Source: Gammaproteobacteria bacterium | GTDB lineage: Bacteria > Pseudomonadota > Gammaproteobacteria > SZUA-140 | Direction of reading: 5' to 3' | Length of the DNA: 64,000 nt | Assembly: GCA_015492435.1 (NCBI GenBank) | Contig: WGFB01000051.1 | Location: 15,100-79,099, forward strand | Shown here: positions 12,749 to 51,696 of the stretch, piece by piece | Layout of the letters: each line of letters begins with the position of its first letter | Numbering within the stretch: the first letter of the stretch is position 1 | Translations under genes and position numbers: made by a program | Notes under the pieces: model-generated | Told to the model about the DNA's origin: nothing | Databases searched by the model: none | The model's input: only the letters and a program-made list of their open reading frames with translations

Positions 12749-12895
12749 CGTTGGCGTCAAGATACAAGGTACAAGTGAAGTGGCTCTTGTACCTTGTATC
12801 TTGTACCTTGTACCTTGTACCTTGTATCTTGTAACTCGTATCTTATATCTCTCACAATCCCAGCCCCCGGTTTTTTGCGATGACTGGGGTAACCC
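12749..12895. repeat. Heptamer-repeat element, copy a: palindromic (GTACAAG)n array plus inverted hairpin head
   Basis: Boundary motif GCGTTGGCGTCA. Left arm CAAGATACAAGGTACAAG, a 10-nt loop, then right arm CTTGTACCTTGTATCTTGTACCTTGTACCTTGTACCTTGTATCTTGTA, then the head on the opposite strand (CCCAGTCATCGCAAAAAACCGGGGGCTGGGATTGTGAGAG). Confidence 0.7.
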
Positions 12896-12901
12896 ACTCC
12901 G

Positions 12902-13945
12902 TCAATAGGTCGCAATCTCCACGGGATCGAAGCGGCGCCCCTGCTGGCGCGCGTGGTTCACCTTGTGTTCCAGGCGCTCGATGATCGCGCGGCAGAAATT
13001 GACGCCCGTGAGATCCTGGGCGGTGTTGAGCCCGCCCGGCGAGAACACGTTGATCTCCACCAGCTTGTCGCCCACGATATCCAGTCCCACCAGAAACATG
13101 CCATCCCGCACGAGGCGCGGGCGAACGGCCTCGGCGATCTCCAGCATGTCATCGGTGATCCGGGCCTTCCGCGCCTTGCCGCCCACCGTCATGTTGCTGC
13201 GGATATCCTCTCCAGGGCGCATCCTGCGTATGGCGGCGTACTCGCCACCGATGCGCAGCGGCCTGCCGTTGACAATGAACAGACGGGTGTCCCCGTGCTC
13301 GATGGCGGGCAGAAACTCCTGGGCGATGACATAGCCCTCGTGGCTGATGGCCTCGATCATCTGGTGAAGGTTGGGCGCATCCAGGGGGCGCAGGAGAAAC
13401 ACATTGCGCCCTCCCGACCCCGCCAGGGGTTTCAGCACGATGGTTCCGCCCATGGCCTTCTGAAAGGCGATAATTTCATCGTGGTCGCGGGTGATGAGCG
13501 CCGCGGGCCTGATGTGGCGGGGAAAGGCCAGGCAATACATTTTGTTGATCCCGCGCGCCAGGCTGTCGGGGTTGTTGAGGGTGATGACGCCGTGGCCCAT
13601 GGCCAGCCGCCCGAAATTGATGCCCGCCAGGCGCGCCCAGGGGCGGTCGATGATATCCTGGGCGGGATCGTTGCGCAGCATCAGGACATCGAGTTCATCC
13701 ACGGTGATCATGACCGGCGCGACCTCTTCCCGCATGATCTCAAGAAAGCGCGCCGCGCTGCGGTGCCTCCCGGATGGCGCCACAAAGGCCCTGGCGCGCA
13801 CGGAGTCATCGGAACATATCTCGAAGTCGGCCACATTGATATAACAGGTTTCATGGCCGAGGTTATTGGCTTCCATGGCCAGGCAGGTGGTGGTATAGGC
13901 GGCGTATTCGGTGCGCAGGTCATTGATGACGAAACCGATCTTCAC
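12902..13945 (-). CDS. Glutathione-synthetase-like ATP-grasp ligase (GshB homolog)
   Basis: 347 aa. Co-linear similarity to E. coli GshB blocks: VLMLRNDP vs VILMRKDPP; LKPLAGSGGRNVF vs LKPLDGMGGASIF; AQEFLPAIEHGDTRLFIVNGRP vs AQNYLPAIKDGDKRVLVVDGEP; FLVGLDIVGDKLVEINVFSP vs IFVGLDIIGDRLTEINVTSP. Its start overlaps the upstream gene's stop as ATGA. Confidence 0.8.
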   Translation of the reverse strand: MKIGFVINDLRTEYAAYTTTCLAMEANNLGHETCYINVADFEICSDDSVRARAFVAPSGRHRSAARFLEIMREEVAPVMITVDELDVLMLRNDPAQDIIDRPWARLAGINFGRLAMGHGVITLNNPDSLARGINKMYCLAFPRHIRPAALITRDHDEIIAFQKAMGGTIVLKPLAGSGGRNVFLLRPLDAPNLHQMIEAISHEGYVIAQEFLPAIEHGDTRLFIVNGRPLRIGGEYAAIRRMRPGEDIRSNMTVGGKARKARITDDMLEIAEAVRPRLVRDGMFLVGLDIVGDKLVEINVFSPGGLNTAQDLTGVNFCRAIIERLEHKVNHARQQGRRFDPVEIATY

Positions 13946-15849
13946 GGCGCCAGGCCCTCGGTCAGGGCCGCCAGGTCGAGCCCCGCGCGCAGGCGCGCCA
14001 GTCTTTCCCGGCAGGATTTCAGCGTCAGGAAGCGCGGCCGCAGCAGGGGCGGACGGACAATGCGGCGCCAGCGCAATTCTTCGATGAATGGCGCCTGTTG
14101 CAGGGCGAACTTCCCGGTCAATAAAACATCCATGTCCCCGCCCCGGCCAAAATAGGACAGCAGGTCGATGAGCCCACGCAGATAGACCACGTCCTTGGTA
14201 AGCCCGCCCCCGCGGTAGACGCGCATGGTGATGTAGTAGGCCTGGTACTGGCTGAACTCGTGGTCATGATGCAAGGCCCGGAATGTTTCGATGAAATCGG
14301 CGCCGGTGACCAGATGATGCACCGCGACAACCCGCGCGGCCAGGGTGCGCAGGCGGGAGCGGTTCAGGCCGCCCACCAGGTATTCCGCCAGCACCGCCAG
14401 GCCTTCCTGGGTCTCGTCATAGGCGGCCAGGCCCACGTGCAACTGACGCAGCGGCTGCACCAGCCCATTGTAGTAGGTGACGAGATGCACCCCCACTTCA
14501 TGCTGCAGGGATGCATCCACCCTCCCCTCGCCCACCTTGACGTCCGTTCCCACCAGGAAATGTCCCTGGGAGACGATGAGCCCGCTGATGTCGTCGCGGA
14601 TCCGCACTGTCGCCGCCAGGCCGGGATCGGTCTTCCGGTAGTATGCCAGTTCCTTTCTGGCCAGCCTCGCGAATTTCCCGGCATCGAGGGCGCGGGACTG
14701 CCTGTCGTCGTGAGTATGGGGGGGCACCTTTTCAAGAATCCCGCGCGCCGCCTTCAGCAGGGCCTTGTCGGCCACGCCGAATACTTGCATGCTGCCGTAG
14801 AGAAATTCCGCCTTGCCACGCGCATCCAGCATCGAAACCTTGCGGTCGAGCTCGCGGCGCTTTTCCTCGAACAACAGGGCCAGGGTGGGATCTTCGATGG
14901 CGTCCAGGGGAATGTTGTAGAGGGCGCGCTTGACCAGGCCCGGATCCACCGTTCGCGGCCGGTAGTGAAACTCGGGAATGACCGCAAAGCGCCCGCGCCG
15001 GAACTGGCGCCAGGCGCTGGCCACGTTGACCGGCGTCGCCTGGAGTATGAGATCGAACTGCTCGTCGATGGCGGCCAGGCGGCGGTCCGTCTCATGCACG
15101 GCGCGGGTCATGGCGTGGCGGCCCAGTTCGTGATAGTGAACGGGCTTGTGGCGGCTGTACTGGCGCGCAAACTCATGGAAGCTCTGTTTCAGGGCCCGCC
15201 CCACTCCCTGGCGCACCGCGCGCAGGGCGTAGGGGAGGCGCGCGCCGGTCTCCCTGTCGTGGTAAACAGGCGCGACCTCCAGACCGAGCAAGGTGCCGCC
15301 CGCGGATCTGAGGCGGGCGGCCGAGAGCAGCGGCTTCATGCCGGGTGGCGCGCAGCGCTGGACGTAATCCACCGTCACACGGGCGCAGCAACGGCGCAGG
15401 CGCACCCTGCGCAAGGCCTGATCCAGGCGTTCAATGACGGGCATGGGCGCATTGTGCCTGGGGGCGAGAACGCGAAAGGCCGGCGCGGGGGCCCTGCCGT
15501 CCCGCTCCCCTTCCGCCACGAGGCCGGGATTCGCCCATATCTCGACGATGAGAAAGGCGCCACAGGCCCTGGATTGCAGGGCGGCGATTTCCTCGACCAG
15601 GCGCGACACATCGCGCTGCGCGCCTGGATCCCCGCTGGCGAGAAGATAGGCGGCCTCGCCGGTCAGCAGGCTTTCCGTCTCCGGGTCGTCCACCCCGGGA
15701 GGGCGGCGGTAGACGCACAGAAAAGGCAGGTGCCGGTCGATATGCGCCCGGCCGCCACCCGGCAGCCTGCGCCTGACCGCGCTGCCGGCCTTCACGAAGC
15801 GGATAATATCTTCGATGACTGTTGCGGCGCGCTCCCGTGGCTTGTTCAT
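13942..15849 (-). CDS. QEGLA-motif protein (DUF1704, family name recalled from memory) with an HExxH(x23)E motif; possibly a zinc peptidase
   Basis: Contains ...LQHEVGVHLVTYYNGLVQPLRQLHVGLAAYDETQEGLAVLAEYLVGG. The start is taken at ATG 15849 (MNKPRERAATV, 635 aa), because the track start at 15999 would overlap the divergent uspA. The ~250-aa N-terminal region has no recognised domain. Confidence 0.7.
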   Translation of the reverse strand: MNKPRERAATVIEDIIRFVKAGSAVRRRLPGGGRAHIDRHLPFLCVYRRPPGVDDPETESLLTGEAAYLLASGDPGAQRDVSRLVEEIAALQSRACGAFLIVEIWANPGLVAEGERDGRAPAPAFRVLAPRHNAPMPVIERLDQALRRVRLRRCCARVTVDYVQRCAPPGMKPLLSAARLRSAGGTLLGLEVAPVYHDRETGARLPYALRAVRQGVGRALKQSFHEFARQYSRHKPVHYHELGRHAMTRAVHETDRRLAAIDEQFDLILQATPVNVASAWRQFRRGRFAVIPEFHYRPRTVDPGLVKRALYNIPLDAIEDPTLALLFEEKRRELDRKVSMLDARGKAEFLYGSMQVFGVADKALLKAARGILEKVPPHTHDDRQSRALDAGKFARLARKELAYYRKTDPGLAATVRIRDDISGLIVSQGHFLVGTDVKVGEGRVDASLQHEVGVHLVTYYNGLVQPLRQLHVGLAAYDETQEGLAVLAEYLVGGLNRSRLRTLAARVVAVHHLVTGADFIETFRALHHDHEFSQYQAYYITMRVYRGGGLTKDVVYLRGLIDLLSYFGRGGDMDVLLTGKFALQQAPFIEELRWRRIVRPPLLRPRFLTLKSCRERLARLRAGLDLAALTEGLAP

Positions 15850-15914
15850 GGAACTTCCATTGCTGCTATACTTTCCCGAAGCCCCTTGGCGTCTGAATGA
15901 TGGAGGATCCTTCC

Positions 15915-16361
15915 ATGCCAGATTACAACCATATCCTAGCCGCTGTCGACTTTTCCGCCGCGGCGGAGGCCATCGGCAAGCGCGCCCTGGATCTGTCAAG
16001 ACGCTATGACTGCCAGGTGACCCTGATCCATGTGGTCGACTACCTGCTTCCCCTTGGCTACGCTGACGACTTCACCCCCTCCCCGGTCCTGATGATCGAC
16101 GAAAACGAACTGCTGGAGCAGAGTCAGCGGTCCCTGCAGACCTTTGCCGAAAAGACGGGACTGGAGGGCGCCCGCCGGCAGGTGCTGCCGGGTTCTCCGC
16201 GCCAGGAGATCATACGCTATGCCCGTGAACACGGGGCGGACCTCATCGTCATCGGCTCCCATGGCCGGCATGGACTGGACCGCCTGCTGGGATCCACCGC
16301 CAGGAGCATTCTCAACGATGCCCCGTGTGACGTGCTGGCGGTGCGCATCAAGGAAGCGTGA
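15915..16361 (+). CDS. uspA: Universal stress protein UspA family
   Basis: MPDYNHILAAVDFS...ADLIVIGSHGRHGLDRLLGSTARSILNDAPCDVLAV. Start at ATG 15915 with GGAGGA 8 nt upstream. Confidence 0.85.
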   Translation: MPDYNHILAAVDFSAAAEAIGKRALDLSRRYDCQVTLIHVVDYLLPLGYADDFTPSPVLMIDENELLEQSQRSLQTFAEKTGLEGARRQVLPGSPRQEIIRYAREHGADLIVIGSHGRHGLDRLLGSTARSILNDAPCDVLAVRIKEA

Positions 16362-16371
16362 ATCCCCGGGC

Positions 16372-17088
16372 ATGACCGGCGGCAGGCGCGGCCCAGGCAA
16401 GATGACACCCTCTCCCGCATCCAGAAACCGCGAGCTGGCGCGGATGCTCCAGGAGATCGAGGGAGAGGTCCAGTACACCCGCGGCATGACGGGCCGGGCG
16501 CGGCTCGACCCCAGGGTGGTGGAGGCCATTGCCGCGGTGCCCCGTCACCGCTTCGTCGACAAGGACGTCAAGGCCCTGGCCTACGCCAACCACCCCCTGC
16601 CCATCGGCGCCGGACAGACCATTTCCCAGCCCTACATCGTCGCCATCATGACGGAACTGCTCGATCTGACACCGGACAGCGTGGTGCTGGAGATCGGTAC
16701 GGGATCCGGCTATCAGGCGGCCATCCTGTCGCGCCTGGTGAAGCAGGTCTACACCATCGAGATCATCCGCGAACTGGGCGAAAAGGCGGCGCAACGGCTG
16801 AAGAAACTGGGTTATGACAACGTCACCGTGCGCATCGGTGATGGCTACCAGGGCTGGCCCGAACACGCGCCCTATGATGCCATCATGGTGACAGCGGCAT
16901 GTCCGACCCTCCCCGCTCCCCTGATCGAGCAGCTCAAGGTGGGCGGCAAAATGATGATCCCCCTGGGGCAGCCGGATTTCAGCCAGGAACTCATGCTGGT
17001 GGAAAAAAAGGAAGACGGCGGGATCGACACCCGCCCCGTGCTGCCCGTCGCGTTCGTGCCCCTGACGGGAGACGGCGTCCTCAATTGA
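16372..17088 (+). CDS. pcm: Protein-L-isoaspartate O-methyltransferase
   Basis: AAVPRHRFVDKD...LPIGAGQTISQPYIVAIMTELLDLTPDSVVLEIGTGSGYQAAILSRL...GDGYQGWPEHAPYDAIMVTAA is near-identical in pattern to E. coli Pcm. The start is uncertain among ATG 16372, 16392 and 16444. Confidence 0.85.
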   Translation: MTGGRRGPGKMTPSPASRNRELARMLQEIEGEVQYTRGMTGRARLDPRVVEAIAAVPRHRFVDKDVKALAYANHPLPIGAGQTISQPYIVAIMTELLDLTPDSVVLEIGTGSGYQAAILSRLVKQVYTIEIIRELGEKAAQRLKKLGYDNVTVRIGDGYQGWPEHAPYDAIMVTAACPTLPAPLIEQLKVGGKMMIPLGQPDFSQELMLVEKKEDGGIDTRPVLPVAFVPLTGDGVLN

Positions 17089-17938
17089 CCAGCAGGCACC
17101 CGCACCCCAGGCCTTCCAGATCGCGCAGCAGCGATTCACCGTATTCCATGAGGCCGGGCCTGCCGCCGATGAACAGCCCGCAGCCCTGCTCCGCGAGCAT
17201 GCGCGCCAGGCAGCCGCAGGTGCTCTCCCGCAGGCGGTGAATGCGGCAGGGGATGCCCTGCGCCCCCAGATATTCCTCGATATGCGCCCTTGCCCGGCGT
17301 TCCTCCGCCTCCTCCATCGGCGGCAGGACAATCGTCATGGGCAGGCTGCCTTCCTGAAAACAAGACGTTGCCAGGCGCAACGCCCGCCAGGCCGCGGGGG
17401 TGCCGTCGAAGTAGACCGTGAGCGCGCGGGGGGCGTGTCCGGCGTCACGTTGCAGGAGCACCGTGGAAGTGGTCTGACGCAGGATCCTCCACAGAACACC
17501 CTCCTCCCTCGTGCTGGAGACCAGTGATTCCCGGACACGGTCCAGGATCAGCAGATCCTCCCCCACGACGCTGGCCAGCACTTCCCGGGAGACATGCCCG
17601 CGCCGCACCTGGAAGGACCAGGGCACCTTGTGCCGGGCGGCGAGCGCCGACAGTTTTTCGCGCACGGCATTCGCCTGTGCCTTGAGCACCCTTTCCATGC
17701 GCTCCCTGTCCAGGGGGCGGATCTCTCCCAACCCATAAGACATCTCCCCAGCGCGCGGCAGGGCGGCCAGGCGCAACAGGTTGATGTCCTCGATGAAGAG
17801 GACATGCATTTCGGCCTTGAGACGCAGGGCGATCTCCACCGTGCCTTGCATCTTTTCCAGATTGCCCGCGGGGGGGCTGAGCACGATGACGACGCGGCGG
17901 ATGTCCGACGCCTGCTCAGGCGTGATGATGTTCATCAT
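17081..17938 (-). CDS. Tandem universal-stress-protein (USP) domain protein
   Basis: Two degenerate USP-like halves; the C-terminus GCGLFIGGRPGLMEYGESLLRDLEGLGCGCLLVN resembles the USP G-x2-G-x9-G-S tail. The start is taken at MMNIIT (17938) and is uncertain; it overlaps the upstream Lon-like gene's 3' end by about 20 nt. Confidence 0.5.
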   Translation of the reverse strand: MMNIITPEQASDIRRVVIVLSPPAGNLEKMQGTVEIALRLKAEMHVLFIEDINLLRLAALPRAGEMSYGLGEIRPLDRERMERVLKAQANAVREKLSALAARHKVPWSFQVRRGHVSREVLASVVGEDLLILDRVRESLVSSTREEGVLWRILRQTTSTVLLQRDAGHAPRALTVYFDGTPAAWRALRLATSCFQEGSLPMTIVLPPMEEAEERRARAHIEEYLGAQGIPCRIHRLRESTCGCLARMLAEQGCGLFIGGRPGLMEYGESLLRDLEGLGCGCLLVN

Positions 17939-20351: not shown

Positions 20352-20399
20352 AACGGGTCGTTTGCCTTGGTTTTACTGCAAGTGATATCGTTCTGTAAA

Positions 20400-20646
20400 C
20401 CCAGTCATTGCATAAATTGGGTACTGGGATTGTGAAAGGTACAAGGTACAAGATACAAGGGAAGCAGCCTTTTGTATCTTGTATCTTGTATCTTGTACCT
20501 TTGTATTTTGTATCCTGCGCCTTCCTGTGGCCTGCTGCTGGATAAAACCTGGGGTGACGCCAGCGCTCGGGGCCGCCACACGCAGCAGGCGTATGAAACA
20601 AGGCGTTATCCTCAGTTGGCACTCGCAATTTTATGCAACTGCCGGG
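20400..20646. repeat. Heptamer-repeat MITE-like element, complete copy b (head hairpin + palindromic heptamer arrays + right terminal inverted repeat)
   Basis: Head CCCAGTCATTGCATAAATTGGGTACTGGGATTGTGAAAG (20400-20438); GTACAAGGTACAAGATACAAGG; a 9-nt loop; TTTTGTATCTTGTATCTTGTATCTTGTACCTTTGTATTTTGTATCC; then the right TIR GTTGGCACTCGCAATTTTATGCAACTGCCGGG (20616-20646), which is an imperfect inverse of the head core. It lies in the divergent promoter region between the Lon-like gene and phhB. Confidence 0.7.
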
Positions 20647-20706
20647 TAAAGTATAACCTGAATCAGTGAGTTCAGGCTCAACCCTGCGACTCGATGAGGT
20701 GGCATT

Positions 20707-21054: not shown

Positions 21055-21121
21055 GGTGCTCGCTTGCCCCTGCCCCTCAGTTCCCTCTCCCCCTTGGGTG
21101 AGCTCGGCGCCGCTTTTCTTT

Positions 21122-22552: not shown

Positions 22553-22556
22553 AGAT

Positions 22557-22605
22557 GCAAGGGTACAAGTTACAAGGTACAAGGTACAAGATACAAGGGT
22601 ACAAG
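22557..22605. repeat. Heptamer array, copy c (7 tandem GTACAAG-type units), in the archease-rtcB intergenic spacer
   Basis: GCAAGGGTACAAGTTACAAGGTACAAGGTACAAGATACAAGGGTACAAG lies immediately 5' of the rtcB ATG inside a co-directional operon. The unit length of 7 is not a multiple of 3, so it is non-coding. Confidence 0.75.
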
Positions 22606-22655
22606 CTTGGGCTTCGCGGTGTTCAGGCCTGCGGTTCGGGGGTGAGACAGACTCG

Positions 22656-25603: not shown

Positions 25604-25655
25604 TTACCCAGCCTGGGAGGGAGCCTTTAGTATCTTGTACCTTGTATCTTGCGCC
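25604..25655. repeat. Heptamer-repeat element, short copy d
   Basis: CCCAGCCTGGGAGG hairpin-like head remnant followed by TATCTTGTACCTTGTATCTTG (3 units). Confidence 0.55.
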
Positions 25656-25688
25656 TCCCCGCGGCCTGCTGCAGGTGGCTTTCGGAAG

Positions 25689-25904: not shown

Positions 25905-26020
25905 CTCCGGGCAAGGGAAACAAAGGTCTGGATTTAGATACCATTATACTACACCCGGCAGTGACATAAAATCGCACGTGCCAGCCTTGTTTCAAACGCC
26001 CTGCTCTGTGACGTCCCCAA

Positions 26021-26148
26021 GCGTTGGCGTCATATTCAAAGCAGGTACAAGAGGCAAGGTACAAGATACAAGGGACAAGGTACAAGGGGTAGCGTTTTGT
26101 TTCTTGTACCTCTCATGGTCCCAGCACCCAATTTTCCGCAATGACTGG
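26021..26148. repeat. Heptamer-repeat element, copy e (boundary motif + heptamer array + inverted head hairpin)
   Basis: GCGTTGGCGTCA boundary (shared with copy a); GGTACAAGAGGCAAGGTACAAGATACAAGGGACAAGGTACAAGG; spacer; CTTGTACC; then inverted head CCCAGCACCCAATTTTCCGCAATGACTGG. Confidence 0.7.
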
Positions 26149-26195
26149 ATACAGGGTGGCGGGCGTCACCCGGATTCTGTAATACCTGAACCCAC

Positions 26196-28285: not shown

Positions 28286-28318
28286 CTTACCCTTGTACCT
28301 TGCCCCTTATACCTTATT
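28286..28318. repeat. Degenerate heptamer array, copy g
   Basis: CTTACCCTTGTACCTTGCCCCTTATACCTTATT. Confidence 0.45.
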
Positions 28319-29394: not shown

Positions 29395-29606
29395 GACGGA
29401 TCCTTCCTTGCGGCGGAAAGCCGACACAGCGGAATGGGCGGGCCTGCCCGCGCACGGTTGCTTTCCCCATTCTGTCAGTTACAATATTGAGATTGCAAGA
29501 TCTTGGGGGTTTATCAGCAGTTCCATCGCGGTATCTTCTGTCATCACCTTGTATAGTTCTGCAATACTTTTCCGTTTTATTTTCATTTTCACTAGAGGTA
29601 ATTTTC

Positions 29607-29810
29607 ATGGCAACAGGTACCGTTAAATGGTTCAATGAATCCAAGGGTTTTGGTTTTATCGCTCCCGCCGATGGCAGCGCCGACGTGTTCGTGCACTTCT
29701 CGGCGATCGAAGGCACTGGTTTCAAGACCCTGGCCGAGGGTCAGTCTGTAAGCTTTGATGTCGAGGAAGGACCCAAGGGCCCTCAGGCCACCAAGGTTTC
29801 ACCACAATAA
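29607..29810 (+). CDS. cspA: Cold-shock protein, CspA family
   Basis: 67 aa; [64 protein letters not shown]. Preceded by a ~150-nt AT-rich leader ending ...TAGAGGTAATTTTC-ATG, which resembles the E. coli cspA 5'UTR end. Confidence 0.95.
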
Positions 29811-30090
29811 GAAAGCAGTCTAGGAGACTGCCATGTCCGCGGCGCACGCCGGAGCACAACCAGCGTGCGCCGTGGTCAGCTCCAGCACCAACCCACATTT
29901 CTCACCAAGACGGCGGGGCCTCGCTTGATCCTTGAATCCACAAAGGATCCTGCTCAACCGGAAATACACCCTGGTTTTCCGCTCTTTCGTAAAGTCCTTT
30001 GTGAATCCAATTCTCTGCGCGATCATCCCTCCATCCTGGTGAGAAACGCGGGCTGACCAGTTGGGCCCAACCCGCGGTTCTTGATAAAGA

Positions 30091-34246: not shown

Positions 34247-34353
34247 CCCAGTCATTGTAAAAAATTAGGTACTGGGATTGTGAAAGGTACAAGTTACAAG
34301 GTACAAGATACAAGGGAATCGGTTGGCACTCGCAATTTTATGCAACTGCCGGG
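34247..34353. repeat. Heptamer-repeat MITE-like element, compact complete copy f (head hairpin, 4 heptamers, right TIR)
   Basis: CCCAGTCATTGTAAAAAATTAGGTACTGGGATTGTGAAAG + GTACAAGTTACAAGGTACAAGATACAAGG + GGTTGGCACTCGCAATTTTATGCAACTGCCGGG, inserted between the msrAB stop and its hairpin terminator. Confidence 0.7.
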
Positions 34354-34355
34354 AA

Positions 34356-34390
34356 AGAAAGAGCCCCGCTCATGGCGGGGCTCTTTTGGG
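34356..34390. terminator. Bidirectional rho-independent terminator between convergent msrAB and the second csp gene
   Basis: AAGAGCCCCGC-TCATG-GCGGGGCTCTT, followed by TTTTGGG on the plus strand and TTTCTTTCCC on the minus strand. Confidence 0.7.
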
Positions 34391-34405
34391 CCGCGATCGC
34401 TTATT

Positions 34406-34609
34406 TTACTGCGGTACGACGTTGACTGCGCTGGGGCCCTTGGCGCCCTGCTCGCTGTCATAGGTTACGGTCTGCCCTTCCGCCAGTGACTTGAATCCGC
34501 TGGCCTGGATGGCGGAGTGATGCACGAAAACATCGGCGCTGCCGTCGGAAGGTGCGATAAAGCCAAAACCCTTGCTGTCGTTAAACCATTTTACTGTACC
34601 TGTAGCCAT
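34406..34609 (-). CDS. Cold-shock protein, CspA family (second paralog)
   Basis: 67 aa; [67 protein letters not shown]. The track ORF 34406..34828 carries a spurious 73-aa N-terminal extension through the AT-rich leader. Confidence 0.93.
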
Positions 34610-34782
34610 TCTGGTTACCTCGTGTGTTGGTGAAATGTAATGTGTGCAGGTTACTGTTGAGAAATTACGGAAGAGATGACGCTTGATACTGCACTGCGAG
34701 GAACTACCGGAACCACTACGATACAAAAATCTGCAACGCCAGCCATCGTACCCCATGGCGGAGCCGAATGCCAGCAATATTT

Positions 34783-34857
34783 CCCCAATCATTGGAAAAA
34801 TTGGGTAGAGGGAGCGTGGAAGGCGCAAGGTTCAAAGTACTAAGGTACAAGGTAATC
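34783..34857. repeat. Heptamer-repeat element, degenerate copy h (head variant + degenerate heptamers)
   Basis: CCCCAATCATTGGAAAAATTGGGTAGAGGGAGCGTGGAAG + GCGCAAGGTTCAAAGTACTAAGGTACAAGGTAATC. Confidence 0.55.
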
Positions 34858-38909: not shown

Positions 38910-38960
38910 GCCTATACAGCCCTAAGATACATGCTATGGGATTGTGGATACAAGTGAAGA
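38910..38960. repeat. Partial/degenerate heptamer-repeat element remnant, copy j
   Basis: ...TTACAAGCCTATACAGCCCTAAGATACATGCTATGGGATTGTGGATACAAGTGAAG retains the TGGGATTGTGnAnnnTACAAGTGAAG junction seen in copies a, b and f. Confidence 0.45.
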
Positions 38961-42002: not shown

Positions 42003-42102
42003 CTTGATACGCAATAAATCCCTGTATGAAAATGATTCCATCGGCGTGGCTGTGTTCCGCGGGGGCGTGAATCCCGCACCCGGAATACCGTTCATGCACC
42101 GG

Positions 42103-44109: not shown

Positions 44110-44290
44110 GAGAACCTCATCCCGCGCCCTCCCCCGCGGCACAGATGGCATATATTATTGCCGGGTTGATAAAACCTACGCTACTCCCCGGTGAGTGTCA
44201 ATCAGACATCTCCACCCGCCGTCCCGCGGGCCGCGCGCGGCAGGACCCAACTTGCATTTCCGCGGCAACCAGGATCACCGGAATCCGCCA

Positions 44291-46077: not shown

Positions 46078-47053
46078 CCAGGTTGGTCAGCAGCTTGTCC
46101 ACGATGGCCTGGGAGAAATAACCGTTGCCACGGGTTTCGATGAGCCGGTCCCTGATGGCGCTGTCCCAGCGCGCCTTCTCCTCCGCGCTGGGCCGAATGA
46201 ACTCGATCCCCTGTCCGGCCAGGGCATGGCGGGCCTGTTCATTCTCCTGGCGGTTGATTTCGTTGAGGCGCTCGAACACATCGGTCAGCGCGGCCCTGAC
46301 GATCTCCTGGTCGTCCGGCTTGATGCGCTCGAAGGTCTTGCGGTCGATGATGAGAATACCATAGAGGTACATGAGGGGCGTGTCCGTCACGTATTTCACC
46401 CGCGTATGCCATTGCAGGGCGATGGCGCCGATCGGCGAGGCGCCCACGGTGTCGATGAGCCCTGTCTGCAGGGCGGTCAGGACATCGGGCAAGGGGAGCG
46501 AAATGGGCGACACGCCCACCGCCTCGAAGGCCATCTGGCTGATGGCGTCTCCTTCCGGAACCCACACCTTGCGGTCATCGAGATCCGCGATGCCCGAGAT
46601 GGGCTTGTTGGACATCAGGTAGGCGAACCCCGCCTCCGCCAGGCCGAAGCTTACATATCCGCGCTCATAGAGCCCCTGCATGAGGTCACCGTCCATGCGG
46701 GCGCGCACGAAATCCACTTCGTCCGTGTTGCGGAAGGCGAAGGGAAGGCTGTAGATCTGGGAATCCGGGTAGATCTCCCCCAATCCGCCGCCGACCATGG
46801 CGCCGCCGTGCAACTGGCCGACGCGCATCTTGCGCAGCACGTTCTTGTCGTTGCCCATGACGCCGCCGGGATAGAAACGGAGCTTGACCCGGCCCGAGGT
46901 CTGCTGCTTGATATCCGCGGCCGCCTTGCGCAGTTCCTTCATCCATACCGTCCCGTCGGGCGAGATGGTGGCGATCTTCAGGGTCAGGGCCTGGGCCTGC
47001 GCCCCCGCGAGCACTATGGACAACGCCAGCAATAATCTCATCATGCCTCTCAT
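46058..47053 (-). CDS. dctP: TRAP transporter substrate-binding protein (DctP family)
   Basis: 331 aa, signal peptide MRGMMRLLLALSIVLAGAQAQA, DctP-family blocks (LRFYPGGVMGNDKNVLRKMRVGQLHG). Confidence 0.88.
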   Translation of the reverse strand: MRGMMRLLLALSIVLAGAQAQALTLKIATISPDGTVWMKELRKAAADIKQQTSGRVKLRFYPGGVMGNDKNVLRKMRVGQLHGGAMVGGGLGEIYPDSQIYSLPFAFRNTDEVDFVRARMDGDLMQGLYERGYVSFGLAEAGFAYLMSNKPISGIADLDDRKVWVPEGDAISQMAFEAVGVSPISLPLPDVLTALQTGLIDTVGASPIGAIALQWHTRVKYVTDTPLMYLYGILIIDRKTFERIKPDDQEIVRAALTDVFERLNEINRQENEQARHALAGQGIEFIRPSAEEKARWDSAIRDRLIETRGNGYFSQAIVDKLLTNLDAARKR

Positions 47054-47943
47054 TCCTCGAAATATTCCCCGGATTCTTCCAGCAAGATCCGCGCCTGTTT
47101 CTGGGCCACCACATTGGCCAGGGTCAGCCCTTCCTCCTCGGGATCGGCGACCAGCACCTCCTTGAGCAGCCGGTCATGAAGCTCGCGCTCGAACAGCAGG
47201 CGGGCGTAGGTGCGCGCGTATTCCACCTTGGCGATGAGATTTCTGCCCTGGCTCAGCTCGATGGCGTGCTCGAAGTGTTCCCGCCCCACCTCGGGCCGCC
47301 CCCCCAGCGCCGGGGGGAGCTGGGCGTTGATAATGCCCAGGTACACATGAGGCATGCCCCGCTCGAAATCGTCGTCGAGGGCGATGACGCGCTTCAGCAG
47401 GATCTCGACCCGGGGAAGATCGGCCAGATAGCGCCACTCGCCGCTGTTGACCTGTATCCACGAGGCCCAGGCGGTGGCATACGTGTAGAGGAGCTCGGCG
47501 CCCTCCCGGCCCCGCACGCCGTCCACCAGTTCCGCGAAACGTTCGAAGTCGCGGGCCTCCTCCGAGCAGAGCTTGCTCAGTTTGCGGCACACGGCCTGCT
47601 CCGCGTAGCGGTAGGCCTTCCCGGCATGCATGCGCGCATGGGCCTCGTCCGTGGCAAAGACCCCCGCGTAGGCGCTGTAGAGGCGCGAGCCGGCCATCAG
47701 CAGGGTGGCGTCGTGGGGCGTGTTCATGATCATCCCGTCCACCATCAGCAGATAGGCGGGCATGCCCGTCTCCACGATGGCGAGGTCGCTCTGGTTTTGG
47801 ATGCTGTTGGCGATCCCCTGGGTCAGGCCATGGGAGGCGAGACTGGCGCAGCCGCCCACATAGAGCAGCGTGATCAGGAGGAGCAGCTTGTGAATGAGAG
47901 AGGCGTGTTTCAATGAGCGGGTCATGATTGAAAGTCGTCGCAT
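47050..47943 (-). CDS. TatT-family TPR lipoprotein associated with TRAP transporters (TPAT system)
   Basis: 297 aa; lipobox LYVGGC; TPR-like helical repeats; the dctP start overlaps its stop as ATGA. The organisation matches Treponema TatT-TatP(QM). Confidence 0.7.
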   Translation of the reverse strand: MRRLSIMTRSLKHASLIHKLLLLITLLYVGGCASLASHGLTQGIANSIQNQSDLAIVETGMPAYLLMVDGMIMNTPHDATLLMAGSRLYSAYAGVFATDEAHARMHAGKAYRYAEQAVCRKLSKLCSEEARDFERFAELVDGVRGREGAELLYTYATAWASWIQVNSGEWRYLADLPRVEILLKRVIALDDDFERGMPHVYLGIINAQLPPALGGRPEVGREHFEHAIELSQGRNLIAKVEYARTYARLLFERELHDRLLKEVLVADPEEEGLTLANVVAQKQARILLEESGEYFEE

Positions 47944-47982
47944 AAACTATCGTTTTTTTACATGCGGGGCAAGTGCGGATGT

Positions 47983-49050
47983 TCAGGGCGCGGCGAAGCC
48001 GGTAATGGCGTCGCGCAAGGAATCGTCGAGAATGCGGCTTACCTGGTCCATGACCCGGCGCTGAGCCAGGAGCGGTTCGCGGCCGGCCTGTTTGATGTCC
48101 CAGTCCCTGACGCCACGCACCCTGCCCTGCGCGTCCCGCAGGCTGAGCGTCAGCGTGCCCTTCTTCCAGAACCAGCCTTCCCGGCGCCCGAGGTCATCCA
48201 GATCCAGGCGCACGGTCACTACATAGTCCGCCTCCTGTCCCGCGCGGGCAACCTTGAAGCCCGCGCGGGACAGGGCGGCGGACAGGCGGCGCGCCAGTTC
48301 CCCGGCATCCTCCTCTTCCGCCCTGGCCTCCAGGACAATCCTGTCCATGAGGGCATCCCGGTCGGCGGCGAGGCGCGCCAGCGGCCAGGGAGGTGGAATG
48401 CCGCGCCCGCCCCGGTCGATGACCCGCAACACGCTTTGCAGGTCGCGCCGCGCCTCCTGGGCCTCCACGGCGCGGCTGGCCGCCGCGATGGCGGCGAGGA
48501 CATCGCGGCTGGCGCGGGCGCGGTCGACCTCGCGTGCGGTCCTGGCATCGAGTTCGCGGATCTCGTCCCGCAACTGCCGCCGTGCGGGCGCGCGTTCGAG
48601 CACCGCCAGGGCGTGATATTCGCCCTCGTCCGGCGCGCGCCACACATCGGCGATCTCCACGCCGCGGATGACCTGGTGGGTGCGGGCCGTGATTTTGCGC
48701 GTGATGTCCGTCTCGGCGCCCGCCCCGTCCCGGGATGCGGACCCGGCGGATGCCTGGAAGCGCGTTTCGTCATTCAGCTCAGCCTCGATGCGCGCCTCCA
48801 GGGTCAGCGCCAGGGCGGCGCGCGCCCGGTTTTCCGCCTGCGAGCGCGTGGCTCCCGAACCCTGCCCCGTCAGGTATTGCGCAGCCGGCCACCCGGTGGC
48901 CTGGCCATCGACCCATTCAGGCCTGTCGCGCTGTTCCGGTGACGAAGCGCAACCCGTCAGCAACATATGGGCGAGCAACAGCCCCCAGGCAAGAACGGTT
49001 CTGAAAATCAATGTCGCCTCCCTTCGGCCGCCACCTGACCGCCGACCCAA
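47983..49050 (-). CDS. Lipoprotein with LPP20-like N-terminal domain and long Arg/Ala-rich coiled-coil C-terminus
   Basis: Lipobox LLTGC; YLTGQGSGATRSQAENRARAALALTLEARIEAEL resembles the LPP20 family. 355 aa; start uncertain (the track start overlaps the upstream gene by 43 nt). Confidence 0.55.
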   Translation of the reverse strand: MGRRSGGGRREATLIFRTVLAWGLLLAHMLLTGCASSPEQRDRPEWVDGQATGWPAAQYLTGQGSGATRSQAENRARAALALTLEARIEAELNDETRFQASAGSASRDGAGAETDITRKITARTHQVIRGVEIADVWRAPDEGEYHALAVLERAPARRQLRDEIRELDARTAREVDRARASRDVLAAIAAASRAVEAQEARRDLQSVLRVIDRGGRGIPPPWPLARLAADRDALMDRIVLEARAEEEDAGELARRLSAALSRAGFKVARAGQEADYVVTVRLDLDDLGRREGWFWKKGTLTLSLRDAQGRVRGVRDWDIKQAGREPLLAQRRVMDQVSRILDDSLRDAITGFAAP

Positions 49051-50309
49051 TGCAGTGAAATGAAATGCTTGTCCCCTTCCCCCAGGTCGAAGGCGTATTC
49101 CCTCTCGGCGACGGCCTTGCCGGACCTGTCCTTCAATTCAACACGAATTACATGGCTGCCAGGTTCCAGGGGCATGCGGGCGAGGAGAATGCGCCCCGGC
49201 AGGGTCGTCCACGCCCGCGTGTCGGCGCGCTCGCTCAGCACGCCGGCCATGTTGACGATGAATCCCAGGGCATCGTCCTGTTTCCGGGCCGCTTCCGTGG
49301 CCTCGTGCTTGAGTGCGGCGCGCGCGATGGCCCGCGCCAGCAGGACAGGCTTGCGCCGCTCCAGGGTGTATTGCGCGAGGGCGCCGACATCCTCGTACAT
49401 CTGGGTGGCGGCCGCCCCGCCATTTTCATACAGCCTGGCGGAGATCACTTGCGCCGCGCGGGGTACATAGTAGGGCATGGACAGCGTGACCAGCTCGCCA
49501 TCGGGGGTCAGGGCGCTGACGTTCTCCGAAAATTTCAATGGCGCAAGCCCGCTGTGCAGCAGAAAAACCAGTTCGCCGCGCGCCTTCCCGTCTTCTGGCG
49601 CCGGGGCGGCCTGGCCACCCCAGCGCCGCTCATAGTCGGCGTACTCCTCCGTCAGCCCCACGCGCCGCGTCAGGCGCAGCAGGTCGGATTTGAGCTGCGC
49701 GGGCATTGTGGCATGAAACGTCTCCGGATAGCGGGCATAGGCCTGGAAGGCCTTGCGGTAATCGATAAGGGCATCGTCCCATTCGCCCAGGGTTTCATAG
49801 ACCAGGCCCGAGAGATAGCGCGCGAAGGCCGTCCCCGGCAACGCCTTTTCCTCAAGCCCGTTCAGCAGCCCATCCATTTGCAGCACCTCCACCCTGGCAT
49901 CCGCGGGGCGCCCCAGCTCCAGGTAGTTGAGGGCCGCGTAGACATGGAGGAAAATGCGCTCGAAAGGCTCCCCCGTATAGCTGCGCATCATCTCGTTGAC
50001 GGTGAATGCGCCTCCCTGTTCGCTCACGCTGACGGCCATGAGCTGGTCGATGAGTGTCTTGGCCATCTCGAATGCGCGGTTGCTGTCCTCGAAGCGGCCC
50101 GCCATGCGCAACAGCATGGCGCGGTTGAGAAGATAGAGCACCCGGTCGCGCCGGCCATCCAGGTGCTTGTCGAGGATCTCCAGGGCCGCGTCCGGTTTCT
50201 CCGCGGCCATTTCCCGCTCCATCAGGCCCACCCAGTCACTGTAGGTGGCGCATGCGCCCAGCACGGTGAGCAGTGCGGCGGCGATGGCGGGCCGGTATTG
50301 CCATTTCAT
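49008..50309 (-). CDS. TPR-like helical lipoprotein (433 aa), uncharacterised conserved family
   Basis: Signal + lipobox AALLTVLGAC; helical repeat content; sits within a four-gene lipoprotein operon. Confidence 0.55.
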   Translation of the reverse strand: MKWQYRPAIAAALLTVLGACATYSDWVGLMEREMAAEKPDAALEILDKHLDGRRDRVLYLLNRAMLLRMAGRFEDSNRAFEMAKTLIDQLMAVSVSEQGGAFTVNEMMRSYTGEPFERIFLHVYAALNYLELGRPADARVEVLQMDGLLNGLEEKALPGTAFARYLSGLVYETLGEWDDALIDYRKAFQAYARYPETFHATMPAQLKSDLLRLTRRVGLTEEYADYERRWGGQAAPAPEDGKARGELVFLLHSGLAPLKFSENVSALTPDGELVTLSMPYYVPRAAQVISARLYENGGAAATQMYEDVGALAQYTLERRKPVLLARAIARAALKHEATEAARKQDDALGFIVNMAGVLSERADTRAWTTLPGRILLARMPLEPGSHVIRVELKDRSGKAVAEREYAFDLGEGDKHFISLHWVGGQVAAEGRRH

Positions 50310-50345
50310 CGCTTGGCGTTGACAGGAAAGGGCCGCGCCTTCCCG

Positions 50346-50948
50346 TCAGGGCCTGAGACTGGGTTTGGTGACGAATTTCTTGATCTTTTTCTGCCCCACC
50401 CAGACCTTGCGGTTGTCGGCGAGGCTGATGAGCGTCAGGTCCACCTGGTAGAAGCGCACCTGGCGCTTGCCCTCCTTGTCGATGATGGTGTTGATCTCGC
50501 CCTTGAGCATGAAATCGGCGCCGATTTCCTGGCCCATGGGCTTGCGCGTGTCCTCACGGGCGTGCAGATCCTGGTCCATGCGCTCGCCGCGTATTTCGCC
50601 CCGCTCCTCGCTGGAGGCGACAAAGGATACCTGGCCGGAGTTGATGAGGGCCCGCTCCATGTCGCGGACGAAGGTGTTGACGTTGATGTGCTCCTGGCTG
50701 AGATTGCGGATGCCGCCCACGATGACTGTCGGCAGCTTGCCATTCTGTTGCTCGAAGGCGCTGCGCCAGGGACGGGAGAGCACATCGGCGATCATCTCCT
50801 CCGAAACCAGGCGTGAATCCGTGTCGTTCCACTGGCCGCTGAGATCCTGTACTTCCTCCACCTCCATGCGTTCCACCTTGGTGGCGCAGGCGCCCAGAAC
50901 CATCGCGGCTGTCACCATCCATACCAGCATCATCATGCGCGCCATCAT
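50346..50948 (-). CDS. LpoB/COG3417-like lipoprotein
   Basis: Lipobox MVLGAC, then KLPTVIVGGIRNLSQEHINVNTFVRDMERALINSGQVSFV...RQVRFYQVDLTLISLADNRKVWVGQ. The layout resembles LpoB/HP1457-like proteins. Confidence 0.55.
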   Translation of the reverse strand: MMARMMMLVWMVTAAMVLGACATKVERMEVEEVQDLSGQWNDTDSRLVSEEMIADVLSRPWRSAFEQQNGKLPTVIVGGIRNLSQEHINVNTFVRDMERALINSGQVSFVASSEERGEIRGERMDQDLHAREDTRKPMGQEIGADFMLKGEINTIIDKEGKRQVRFYQVDLTLISLADNRKVWVGQKKIKKFVTKPSLRP

Positions 50949-51508
50949 TCGCCTCCTGCCGCCATTCTGTCAAAGATATTCTCGCCGTGGGTGGCCATAT
51001 GGTTGCGGAATCCCTCGTTCATGTCCTTGACGCCGTCGAGGGTTTTCCGCACCTGCTTCAGATCCAGCTCCGCCAGGGAGTACACGACGTTGGTCTTTTT
51101 GTCCCGCCAGCGCCCGATGATGCGGCTGCCGGCGAGATTGACCCGGGAAATGCTGTCGATCTGGCGCGTGATATCCTGTTCCGGCATGGTTTCACCCTTC
51201 ACCCCTGCGCGGGCGTAATCGCTGGAGACGACCTCCATGTACGAAGTCAGAACACGCGCCAGGGCTGCGCGGGCGCGGTTGTCCGCCGTGTCCGTCTGCA
51301 GGGAACGGTCGCCCATGGGCGGGGCGGAACCGACGCCGTGAAACAGGCGCCCCTTTTTGTTCTTGATAACCGCCGGGCCCTTGTTGACCCAGTCGGGCGC
51401 GCCCTTGATGTGCAGATTGCTCTCCACCCGGGTCTGCCCGGCGCAGCCCGCCAGCAGGACAAGGGCGGCGGCCATGGCCCAGGCGGCAGTGAGTTTTGTT
51501 GCTTGCAT
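50945..51508 (-). CDS. LPP20-family lipoprotein
   Basis: The start is taken at ATG 51508 (MQATKLTAAWAMAAALVLLAGCAG, lipobox LLAGC). HGVGSAPPMGDRSLQTDTADNRARAALARVLTSYMEVVSS matches the LPP20 signature. The track's N-terminal extension runs into the heptamer repeat (LVTCILSLV). Confidence 0.7.
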   Translation of the reverse strand: MQATKLTAAWAMAAALVLLAGCAGQTRVESNLHIKGAPDWVNKGPAVIKNKKGRLFHGVGSAPPMGDRSLQTDTADNRARAALARVLTSYMEVVSSDYARAGVKGETMPEQDITRQIDSISRVNLAGSRIIGRWRDKKTNVVYSLAELDLKQVRKTLDGVKDMNEGFRNHMATHGENIFDRMAAGGE

Positions 51509-51595
51509 ATCAGGTTCCCTCTGATGTTTCCGGTTCTGATGCGGGACCGGAGGACCGCCGGACGCGGATTGGGCCGGGCGCATCGCAGCCCAATG

Positions 51596-51696
51596 GGGCG
51601 CCGGGTACAAGATACTAGGTACAAGCGACAAGATGCAAGTTACAAGATGCAAGGCGCGAGGAATGGCAAGCTTTTGTATCTGATTTCTGGCGCCCC
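51596..51696. repeat. Heptamer-repeat element, degenerate copy i flanked by inverted GGGGCGCC/GGCGCCCC
   Basis: GGGTACAAGATACTAGGTACAAGCGACAAGATGCAAGTTACAAGATGCAAGG ... CTTTTGTATCTG. Confidence 0.55.

Follow-up and report, generated by a model that had tools for sequence, protein, structure and literature searches.

Heptamer loci and the anatomy of a full copy

The window, meaning the whole 64,000-nt stretch of DNA that was analysed, is about 86% coding and belongs to a host genome of 62% GC. It contains ten loci (a to j) with tandem (G/A/T)TACAAG heptamers at all ten, and a preliminary description that had placed them between genes was borne out for 10 of 10 by the gene calls of public assemblies and by Pfam. 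The sequence GTACAAGGTACAAG, with at most one mismatch, matched the window 19 times, compared with 0 matches in 100 shuffles. The count of TACAAG/CTTGTA hexamers is 59, where about 15 are expected; their clusters are exactly the ten loci, and TRF detected period-7 arrays there. The units comprise 23 GTACAAG, 11 ATACAAG, 4 TTACAAG and 10 other NNNCAAG heptamers. Chance is no explanation for these loci. The earlier estimate of about one copy per 6 kb does not describe their spacing, which is not uniform: no family member lies in 1-12.6 kb, in 52-64 kb or in the approximately 9 kb past the right edge of the window. A second heptamer hairpin, of other sequence, is located at 59260-59343.

The family was defined by copy alignment, self-blast and nhmmer profiles of the head and tail, which gave the following features.

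12670..12888, minus strand: element a, complete, diverged, 219 bp (copy alignment)
12849-12888, minus strand: head of a (nhmmer E = 7e-12)
12757-12846, minus strand: heptamer hairpin of a, 2 + 7 units
~12701-12759, minus strand: internal modules of a, including GCGTTGGCGTCA at 12748-12759
12670-12700, minus strand: tail of a (nhmmer E = 4e-4; 3-nt deletion)
20400..20646, plus strand: element b, full-length reference copy, 247 bp, with the parts in the next seven lines
20400-20438, plus strand: head of b
20439-20459, plus strand: left array of b
20460-20470, plus strand: loop of b, GGGAAGCAGCC
20472-20514, plus strand: right array of b
20515-20568, plus strand: module M3 of b
20561-20612, plus strand: module M2 of b
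20613-20646, plus strand: tail of b
22553..22605, minus strand: array c, solo, 6-7 CTTGTAx units in rtcB sense orientation
25604..25672, plus strand: element d, partial copy with loop, right array and start of M3
25954..26149, minus strand: element e, complete, diverged, 196 bp
26109-26149, minus strand: head of e (nhmmer)
26040-26112, minus strand: heptamer arrays of e
26021-26032, minus strand: GCGTTGGCGTCA in the internal module of e (sequence comparison)
25954-25985, minus strand: tail of e (12-nt deletion relative to b)
28286..28318, plus strand: locus g, degenerate right-array remnant CTTACCCTTGTACCTTGCCCCTTATACCTTATT
34247..34353, plus strand: element f, short form of 107 bp with head, 4 units and tail
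34784..34857, plus strand: element h, decayed head CCCCAATCATTGGAAAAATTGGGTAGAGGG and decayed array
38910..38960, plus strand: locus i, fragment with the 3' end of a head and one unit, GGGATTGTGGATACAAGTGAAG
51596..51696, plus strand: locus j, 7 degenerate NNNCAAG units, loop-like GGAATGGCAAGC and a short return arm

The full copies a, b, e and f range from 107 to 247 bp, with a general size of about 200-250 bp and f as the short form. A full copy proceeds from the head (CCCAGTCATTGCATAAATTGGGTACTGGGATTGTGAAAG; inverted-end form CCCAGTCATTGCATAAATTGGGTACTGGG) through 1-6 GTACAAG-type heptamers, the conserved loop, 1-8 inverted CTTGTAC units and modules M3 and M2 to the tail, with the loop sitting centrally in a usually palindromic array. 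The tail repeats the head imperfectly in inverted orientation, so both termini read 5'-CCC(A/G)G. The inverted ends proposed earlier hold up against shuffled sequence, though they are imperfect (about 65% over 30 nt): the head-tail alignment scores 9, compared with 2.4 +/- 1.4 in shuffles, and 3 of 2000 shuffles reach 9. Head and tail also each fold as a small inverted hairpin (CCCAGT...ACTGGG and GGCA...TGCC). The elements contain no noteworthy ORF and have no coding capacity. Analysis of the predicted DNA folds gave -40.1 kcal/mol (z = -4.8) for a and -49.4 kcal/mol (z = -4.3) for b, the latter with head-tail pairing and the arrays as a long hairpin, and no hairpin energy excess for f (z = 0.07).

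Several details of the preliminary description are thereby revised. Elements a and e had been drawn about 70-80 bp too short, and the tail, reported for b and f only, is also present in diverged form in both. The motif GCGTTGGCGTCA, taken for a boundary of a and e, is internal at the M3/M2 junction and recurs on the other strand in b at 20555-20566. A head had been assigned to six loci; it is strong in a, b, e and f (nhmmer E <= 8e-11), degenerate in h (E = 0.018) and a fragment, GGGATTGTGGATACAAG, in i. The reported 2 to 7 heptamers per locus do not extend to g, h and i, which carry only 1-2 recognisable units each.

Element a lies between the stop of a gshB-like gene (12902) and the start of rsd (12568), b in the divergent Lon-like/phhB promoter region, and f begins 17 nt after the msrAB stop. 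Array c fills the archease-rtcB spacer and adjoins the rtcB ATG. Element d, between dodecin and a response-regulator gene, aligns with b by blastn in two segments (25615-25651 with 20459-20495, 89%; 25635-25672 with 20501-20538, 84%) and is preceded by CCCAGCCTGGG, possibly a collapsed head. Locus g is situated between an RRM-protein gene and uup, and h (79% to b by blastn) upstream of the cspA leader. Locus j, intergenic by the gene calls of assembly L009, is bracketed by GGGGCGCC and GGCGCCCC and is 82-86% identical to the arrays of a, b and c (blastn); neither a head nor a tail was found at this locus. The weakest member is i, which the sequence of its short fragment suggests, at most, to belong to the family.

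Insertion, deletion and copy variation in relatives

Comparison with orthologous regions revealed that b is a precise insertion relative to an empty site in L289 (GCA_011322815.1; Lon-like protein 91% at the amino acid level), with the alignment reaching both ends. On the reverse complement of the window, the filled site reads TTATACTTTA, then b, then TTTACAGAACGATA, while the empty site reads TTATACTTGGCAAAACGATA; the lengths are equal after subtracting the element and one TTTA. The duplicated target was located as follows.

20396..20399, no strand: left copy of the b target-site duplication, TAAA (against empty L289)
20647..20650, no strand: right copy of the b target-site duplication, TAAA (against empty L289)

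The right copy is directly followed by GTATAAC, the -10-like box of phhB. Element e is flanked by TACA at 25950-25953 and 26150-26153 (TGTA...TGTA on the gene's strand), a duplication that holds only if a C>T mutation is assumed at the first base of the element; the left flank of e aligns only loosely, and the upstream flank is too diverged for base-exact alignment. The empty e site in L284 (Uup 77% at the amino acid level), GCCCTGCCTGTAGTATAAT, has an intact dodecin promoter, ATGACG-17-TATAAT, and e in the window sits between the -35 and -10 hexamers of this promoter. Two target duplications, those of b and e, are thus backed by empty sites; the flanking duplication matches at only 2-3 of 4 bases for f and for the copies in L273 and L277, and none was recoverable at the a site.

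Further presence/absence differences were observed beyond b and e. The a site is empty in L295/L296, L286 and L288. L283/L284 are empty at sites d, f, g and h, and g was found by contiguous alignment in the 95% relative L273. The intergenic region of e carries a different copy in opposite orientation in the sister species, indicating that this region was hit independently. At the f site, L273 (95.3% nucleotide identity) has a full 241-bp copy with a palindromic array, M3 and M2, which identifies f in the window as an internal-deletion derivative. These comparisons show whole-element insertion into short AT-rich targets, with 4 bp duplicated and, in two cases, a -10 box directly alongside. They also show that relatives differ in the presence of the element at orthologous sites, and that it undergoes internal deletion and change in heptamer number.

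The suggestion of variable-number tandem repeats received weak support. Unit number varies between paralogous copies and between species at c, where the sister species L283 has 5 units and L284/L286 have none, with a GAGGGG Shine-Dalgarno-like spacer instead; in addition, an indel of 8 bp in c (22553-22560, TTGCATCT, minus strand) distinguishes strains, these bases being missing from two other assemblies. Otherwise, about 15 array observations in assemblies 99.7-99.97% identical revealed no change in length.

The family is not confined to the window, since 8 further copies occur on 8 contigs of the JGI metagenome Ga0256830, adjoining unrelated genes (e.g., gcvH, gdh/DUF302 and an ECF sigma operon), and dispersed copies are present in at least three related genomes. 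Read directly, the head-side flank opens with a T and continues A/T-rich in 11 of 12 copies. Similarity among the window's copies is about 80-90%, suggesting that most of them are not recent. No Rfam family matched the element, and no plasmid, phage or literature match was found. The Pfam search detected no transposase and no RAYT in the 73 kb examined, nor was an autonomous partner with the same ends found there. Metagenome assemblies, some of them from hydrothermal-vent samples, are the only known source for the host, an uncultured gammaproteobacterium.

Origin of the family and competing explanations

The inverted ends, the absence of coding capacity, the copies in relatives, the two insertions with 4-bp duplications and matching empty sites, and the further presence/absence differences uphold the MITE-like character first proposed, and the ten loci are probably members and decay products of one non-autonomous, MITE-like transposable element family. 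The best reading is a new, uncatalogued MITE family with a heptamer microsatellite inside the element; the family is real but ordinary in kind. A DDE-type transposase from another genomic locus may move the element in trans, recognising its CCC-ended inverted repeats (CCCAGTCATTGCA-type ends). The heptamer tract would be an internal microsatellite that grows and shrinks and may trigger deletions by slipped-strand or hairpin mispairing, of which the solo arrays c, g and j and the fragments d, h and i would be leftovers. Effects on neighbouring genes, for example promoters that were split (phhB/Lon-like, dodecin) or a ribosome-binding region that was replaced (rtcB), would be by-products of insertion with no designed function.

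A host cis-regulatory cassette, with iteron- or operator-like protein-binding arrays or length-tunable promoter or leader spacers serving a regulon or phase-variable gene set, seems unlikely. Stress-related neighbours (rsd, the Lon-like protease, rtcB/archease, csp, msrAB and usp), a tail 24-100 nt upstream of a same-strand start codon in a, b, e and the L273 copy, the retention in two species of an array of varying length at the start of rtcB, and promoter activity in the comparable BrickBuilt element (PMC4596501) would fit it. However, the sites are unconserved in relatives, orientation relative to genes (7/10) is no different from random, copies also lie between convergent 3' ends (L271, L272 and f), the 7-bp period does not match the helical phase of DNA, array length rarely varies between strains, and no consensus promoter pair was predicted in a, b or e. 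The phase-variable spacer and iteron ideas of the preliminary description are likewise unsupported: the arrays lie within a mobile element, are found on both strands and at both 5' and 3' ends, and contain no predicted consensus promoter pair. We consider it very unlikely that the loci are heptamer microsatellites formed by in-place polymerase slippage, as for Xanthomonas GGGAATC, beside unrelated head and tail motifs. Intergenic heptamer repeats are over-represented in many bacteria and variable between relatives (PMC4692102), other heptamer arrays are equally common in IMG/VR, the window has its different-sequence hairpin, and c, g and j lack heads; yet at least 14 copies with unrelated flanks combine the array with loop, head and tail, the GTACAAG-type unit and loop recur at every locus, and whole units were inserted with duplications. 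For the whole family, in-place origin is refuted by the filled/empty site pairs; the solo arrays alone could be ordinary heptamer microsatellites formed at their own sites, rather than decayed elements.

Strictly intergenic copies, small hairpins in inverted orientation at head and tail, and other REP-like palindromes in relatives (CCCGGCAACAATATAT) recall REP/REPIN elements, in which head and tail would correspond to a pair of REP hairpins in inverted orientation, mobilised by a RAYT (IS200/IS605-like Y1) transposase through single-stranded hairpin intermediates. This origin is quite improbable given the 4-bp target duplications at two insertions, the missing conserved GTAG-type REP head, the zero Y1_Tnp matches among the window genes, and the larger, more modular build. 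To our knowledge, IS200/IS605-type insertion yields no target duplications. There is, finally, barely any likelihood of a small structured RNA gene family, or of a leader that contains a tiny ORF (MKQGVILSWHSQFYATAG in b). The strong hairpins of a and b, the ATGAAACAAGG opening M2 in 4 of 5 full copies (TTG in e) and two between-copy indels in multiples of three are set against an RNAalifold covariation term of +1.72 with one compensatory pair only, which gives no covariation support, and Rfam matches that are hairpin noise only. The ORF, moreover, has no fixed stop, runs out of the element and is missing from f, between-copy substitutions show no bias to synonymous sites, and the tail region is an inverted copy of the non-coding head.

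Relation to known repeat systems

The heptamer element resembles bacterial MITEs (PMC3184786) in its size below 300 bp, non-coding nature, terminal inverted repeats, short target duplication, many dispersed intergenic copies, whole-element hairpin and presence/absence differences in relatives, but its inverted repeats are unusually imperfect and a palindromic heptamer microsatellite dominates its body. BrickBuilt of Porphyromonas gingivalis, a MITE for which promoter activity has been shown (PMC4596501), shares the order of leader, tandem repeat tract and tail, the small inverted ends, the always intergenic position, the variable repeat number and the limited host range; its unit is 23 nt and unidirectional, whereas here it is 7 nt, usually in two inverted arrays around a fixed loop, and the two have zero sequence similarity. 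The heptamer repeats of Xanthomonas (GGGAATC), Nostoc (GGGGA(T/C)T) and Calothrix (STRR) are likewise intergenic-only tandem 7-nt units, some in inverted arrays, that vary in length and sequence between close relatives (PMC4692102). Such tracts, G-rich and potentially quadruplex-forming, are not reported as parts of TIR-bounded mobile units (PMC4692102), in contrast to the GTACAAG unit, which belongs to an element that has ends and target duplications. REP/REPIN elements with their RAYT have inverted hairpin modules, strict intergenic position and species-specific sequence in common with the present family, which differs in its target duplications, its greater length and modularity, the absence of a GTAG-type motif, and the absence of a RAYT gene from the 73 kb. 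Pneumococcal BOX, from a Gram-positive host, is similarly modular (boxA-(boxB)n-boxC, boxB about 45 bp), with variable internal tandem units between two end modules able to pair; we know of no clear target duplication described for it. Like the heptamer element, BOX is intergenic, and it can affect neighbouring genes.

Architecture and genomic setting of the heptamer elements

The heptamer family proposed in the preliminary description is non-random at the ten loci (a–j) assigned to it: a search with GTACAAGGTACAAG at ≤1 mismatch returned 19 matches versus 0 in shuffles, and TACAAG/CTTGTA hexamers, of which about 15 are expected, occur 59 times and cluster at these loci. Tandem Repeats Finder reported period-7 arrays there, and a census of the units gave 23 GTACAAG, 11 ATACAAG, 4 TTACAAG and 10 other NNNCAAG variants. 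The intergenic location was confirmed with Pfam and the gene calls of same-organism public assemblies, which place all loci between genes in a window with a coding share of approximately 86%. Self-comparison and alignment identified one element, 107–247 bp long, that is present in complete form at a, b, e, and f.

Heptamer loci of the window
12670..12888, minus strand: a, complete element
20400..20646, plus strand: b, complete element
22553..22605, minus strand: c, array without other modules
d: partial copy with loop, right array and start of module M3
25954..26149, minus strand: e, complete element
34247..34353, plus strand: f, complete element
g: array without other modules
h: partial copy with decayed head and array
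i: head-end fragment
j: array without other modules

From head to tail, the element consists of the head CCCAGTCATTGCATAAATTGGGTACTGGGATTGTGAAAG, GTACAAG units, a conserved loop between the arrays (GGGAAGCAGCC), inverted CTTGTAC units, the internal modules M3 (CCTTCCTGTGGCCTGCTGCTGGATAAAACCTGGGGTGACGCCAGCGC) and M2 (...GCAGCAGGCGTATGAAACAAGGCG), and the tail GTTGGCACTCGCAATTTTATGCAACTGCCGGG. The tail repeats the head imperfectly and in inverted orientation, so that both termini read 5'-CCC(A/G)G, with ends of the CCCAGTCATTGCA.../...TGCAACTGCCGGG type. Alignment of the head with the reverse-complemented tail scored 9, versus 2.4 ± 1.4 in shuffles, 3 of 2000 of which reached 9. The sequence GCGTTGGCGTCA, earlier taken for a boundary motif of a and e, turned out to be internal, lying at the M3/M2 junction and occurring in b too; a and e are terminated by diverged tails (12670–12700 and 25954–25985). 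Single-strand folding compared with shuffles gave z = -4.3 for b, z = -4.8 for a and a weaker z = -1.9 for e, with no excess for the short f, and the predicted fold of b includes head–tail pairing. The only open reading frame is a variable one of about 18 codons (MKQG...), with neither a consistent end nor synonymous bias, and the flanks contain no Pfam match belonging to the element.

Other structured sequences were observed in the window. Another hairpin made of heptamers, but with a different sequence, (GTGANNN)n ... (CACGCCT/CACCCTT/CACGTAT)n, lies at 59260–59343 between convergent PAPS-reductase and 2-hydroxyacid-dehydrogenase genes and makes up a 72-nt palindrome (86%). Compared with the sister species (GCA_011322815.1), an extra 25-nt hairpin (ttgagCCTGAActcactgaTTCAGG) is present at 20651–20706, between b and the phhB start. 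Two cold-shock genes follow leaders of the cspA thermoregulator type, at 34356–34740 (minus strand) and 29481–29875 (plus strand); one leader exceeds the Rfam gathering score (87 bits) and the other falls short of it (62 bits). The leader at 34356–34740 has elements f and h on its two sides.

Insertion sites in related genomes

Exact protein look-ups identified near-identical assemblies, namely the MAGs GCA_027058835.1, GCA_015487295.1, GCA_027008545.1, and GCA_027049415.1, together with ENA assemblies labelled REYS20-1, which are 99.7–99.97% identical to the window. The nearest other lineage is a relative at 95% nucleotide identity in the JGI metagenome Ga0256830, followed by the sister species at 82–91% amino acid identity, found also in the hydrothermal-vent metagenome ERZ940665, and another relative at 74–86%. 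The next-best homologues of Uup and glutathione synthetase reach only 65–68%, in assorted Gammaproteobacteria MAGs, and the Lon-like protein drops more gradually, with matches at 69–71%.

Comparison with these relatives revealed lineage-specific gain of elements, which inserted as units into AT-rich sites and duplicated 4 bp, in two cases beside a -10 box. In the sister species (contig L289), site b is empty and the 79-nt spacer between phhB and the Lon-like gene reads ...GGTTATACTTGGCAAAACGATAACAC..., while the window reads ...GGTTATACTTTA[247-bp element]TTTACAGAACGATATCAC... on the reverse strand. The element ends align with both flanks, and removal of the element plus one TTTA restores the length of L289, giving a TAAA/TAAA target duplication. 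At site e, the 77% relative (L284) has dodecin preceded by an unbroken ATGACG-17-TATAAT promoter; the window carries e between these two hexamers, immediately 5' of GTATAAT and with TGTA on both sides, which corresponds to a TACA/TACA duplication versus the empty site, the left (upstream) flank being alignable only loosely. The duplication bases match at 2–3 of 4 positions in f and in the copies L273 (95% relative) and L277, and copy a has no target duplication.

Three relatives lack an element at site a, and the sister species lacks one at d, f, g, and h; its e spacer holds its own copy in opposite orientation and without a tail. At site f, the 95% relative contains a full copy of 241 bp and, after it, a low-GC sulfotransferase gene missing from the window, indicating that the 107-bp f is a deletion derivative. 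This sulfotransferase gene (L273 7921–8888), 3' of the full-length element, has a GC3 of about 0.5, and a sulfotransferase/TPR gene adjoins dodecin in the relatives L284 and L286 too.

A search of metagenomes for the head pattern detected 8 true copies, all in Ga0256830, on 8 contigs with unrelated neighbour genes; the 12 other matches were chance hits in low-GC coding DNA. The family is dispersed over 10 window loci, 8 Ga0256830 contigs and 2 sister-species loci with unrelated flanks. In 11 of 12 copies, a T adjoins the head and A/T-rich sequence comes next, a pattern indicating that the target is AT-rich in a genome of 62% GC.

Further insertions and repeats were noted in the relatives. L286 and L287 have identical Lon-like proteins, yet differ in a 109-bp element (GGAAGATTAAT...ATTAATCAGGCCTTCC) that belongs to another family and shows a TTAA duplication (L286 6562–6674 versus L287 810). 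This element lies at TTATACTTAA of the phhB promoter region, the same spot as b, suggesting an insertion hot spot. At L279 2648–2664, 17 nt of a tail (CCCGACAGTTGCATAAA) directly adjoin the head of a different copy, which may reflect a nested insertion into TAAA within a tail; the other half expected from such an event was not found. A G-rich repeat (ccctctcccc...gtgaggggcg...ccctcatcc...ggggagaagga) forms tandem copies of about 115 bp after rtcB and relA in the sister species (L289 647–994; L295 8425–8780), and the window retains only a short remnant after rtcB (approximately 21055–21121).

Array length and regulatory context

Besides insertion, the elements underwent internal deletion and change in unit number, the copies having 1–6 units in the left array and 1–8 in the right. 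Array c has 6–7 units in the window versus 5 in the sister species (L283). Among the 99.7–99.97% identical assemblies, the only length difference observed inside any element is an 8-bp indel at c (TTGCATCT, rtcB strand; window 22553–22560, L011 3506, L012 4608), with array c on one side and the rtcB ATG on the other. The heptamer-number variation suggested in the preliminary description may extend to strains at c; about 15 array observations were otherwise unchanged in consensus assemblies, which hide minority lengths. A phase-variable contingency locus would have its tract within an ORF or between promoter hexamers and would often change length from one close strain to another. Contigs of these assemblies end within arrays, L011 in b and e and L015 in f, which could reflect either repeat ambiguity or length heterogeneity. 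Slippage of the heptamer tract or hairpin mispairing presumably produced the length changes, deletions and solo arrays.

Array c adjoins the start codon of rtcB, where the relatives L284 and L286 have a GAGGGG ribosome-binding spacer. In the window and its near-identical assemblies, rtcB has no Shine-Dalgarno sequence, whether the 8-bp segment is present or absent. The b and e insertions part a -35 from its -10, or two divergent promoters from each other, so the genes would have to run on read-through or on weak element-borne signals. An outward promoter in the element was considered, and no consensus hexamer pair in a, b, or e passed the scan; the candidates found by hand (TTCACA-N16-18-TATGCA/TGCAAT) are weak. 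A broader reading is that of a mobile, self-adjusting regulatory cassette that prefers AT-rich landing sites at or near -10 boxes, replaces part of a promoter or leader, and uses the heptamer hairpin as a length-tunable setter of stress-gene expression. Its cases are b and e at or beside -10 boxes, the different MITE at the identical TTATACTTAA spot in a relative, and the strain-variable rtcB array, which stands in place of the Shine-Dalgarno region. We regard this cassette as improbable.

Class assignment and comparison with known repeats

Of the five features that define a MITE, four uphold the MITE-like architecture proposed in the preliminary description: small size without coding, terminal inverted repeats, a 4-bp duplication versus an empty site, and dispersed copies. 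The fifth would be a full-length IS of the same genome with matching terminal repeats. Mobilisation would presumably occur in trans, through a DDE transposase binding the CCC-ended inverted repeats. IS1380-type elements have CC ends and a 4–5 bp duplication, and are a lead, and only a lead, for the partner. Within the window plus its 9-kb extension (about 73 kb), the genes encode no transposase or RAYT (Y1) domain. A REP/REPIN assignment is disfavoured by the target duplications and by the lack of a Y1 transposase domain in these genes. Transposase genes were also sought beside the head-only copies L271 and L278, whose neighbours encode DUF3106, DUF3619, and an ECF sigma factor. Iterons are direct repeats of about 17–22 bp that bind Rep at an origin of replication, next to a rep gene; the units here are 7 bp, lie on both strands and are spread over 39 kb of housekeeping genes with no rep gene, so the suggested iteron-like array finds no support.

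The folding of a and b could also suggest a structured RNA, and this reading was rejected for want of covariation and of an Rfam family: no match reached the gathering score in Rfam 15, and the arrays gave only sub-threshold, miRNA-like hairpin hits. The variable MKQG... frame gives no support to a tiny coding gene. A strict orientation rule, with a gene start after the tail, is true for a, b, e, and L273 and fails for L271, L272, and L277 (7 of 10 overall). A common biology with phage heptamer arrays was likewise dismissed. Threefold xTACAAG occurs in 53 IMG/VR contigs, and two heptamers of equal composition, used as controls, occur in 75 and at least 120; since controls are as common or commoner, the viral contigs are uninformative on relatedness. 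The head pattern gave 1 chance match in viral contigs and the tail pattern none, and plasmids showed no relevant similarity. In GTDB genomes, where the source species is either missing or masked, the 8 head-pattern matches are close to the number expected, all being chance hits in coding DNA of unrelated taxa. No relevant paper was found for the heptamer, head, tail or assemblies.

The elements are best read as a family of MITEs not catalogued before, from a vent lineage of Gammaproteobacteria about which little is known. Of described elements, those nearest to them are bacterial MITEs containing internal tandem repeats, such as pneumococcal BOX. BrickBuilt is another of this kind (PMC4596501). 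Comparably near are heptamer repeats in the intergenic DNA of Xanthomonas, Nostoc, and Calothrix; the same paper notes an over-representation of such repeats in bacteria and their variation between relatives (PMC4692102). The present family unites the two sets of features, with a palindromic 7-nt tract inside an element bounded by terminal inverted repeats. It provides a clean case of a heptamer microsatellite within a mobile element and joins two phenomena usually treated separately, the bacterial excess of heptamer repeats and MITEs, leaving current understanding standing. In practice, the elements disrupt metagenome assemblies, whose contigs end inside them, inflate ORF calls, and serve as markers of recent genome change between 95–99.8% identical strains. 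The insertions in two promoter spacers and one ribosome-binding region pose a modest, testable question of how the genes continue to be expressed.

Other recurrent repeats came to light in these searches. The short palindromic repeat CCCGGCAACAATATATATTGTT(A/G)CCGGG, REP-like in look, recurs in intergenic DNA of relatives.

Occurrences of the CCCGGCAACAATATATATTGTT(A/G)CCGGG repeat
L280: 1828
L283 (sister species): 1418
L284 (77% relative): 215 and 906
L285: 2622
Window: 44150–44164, with 1 mismatch

In low-GC phage contigs, CTNCAAG arrays lead directly into CTTGACA, with a -10-like box about 17 nt further on; this arrangement, unrelated to the window family, recurs at the IMG/VR loci L023, L025, L026, L037, L043, and L045.
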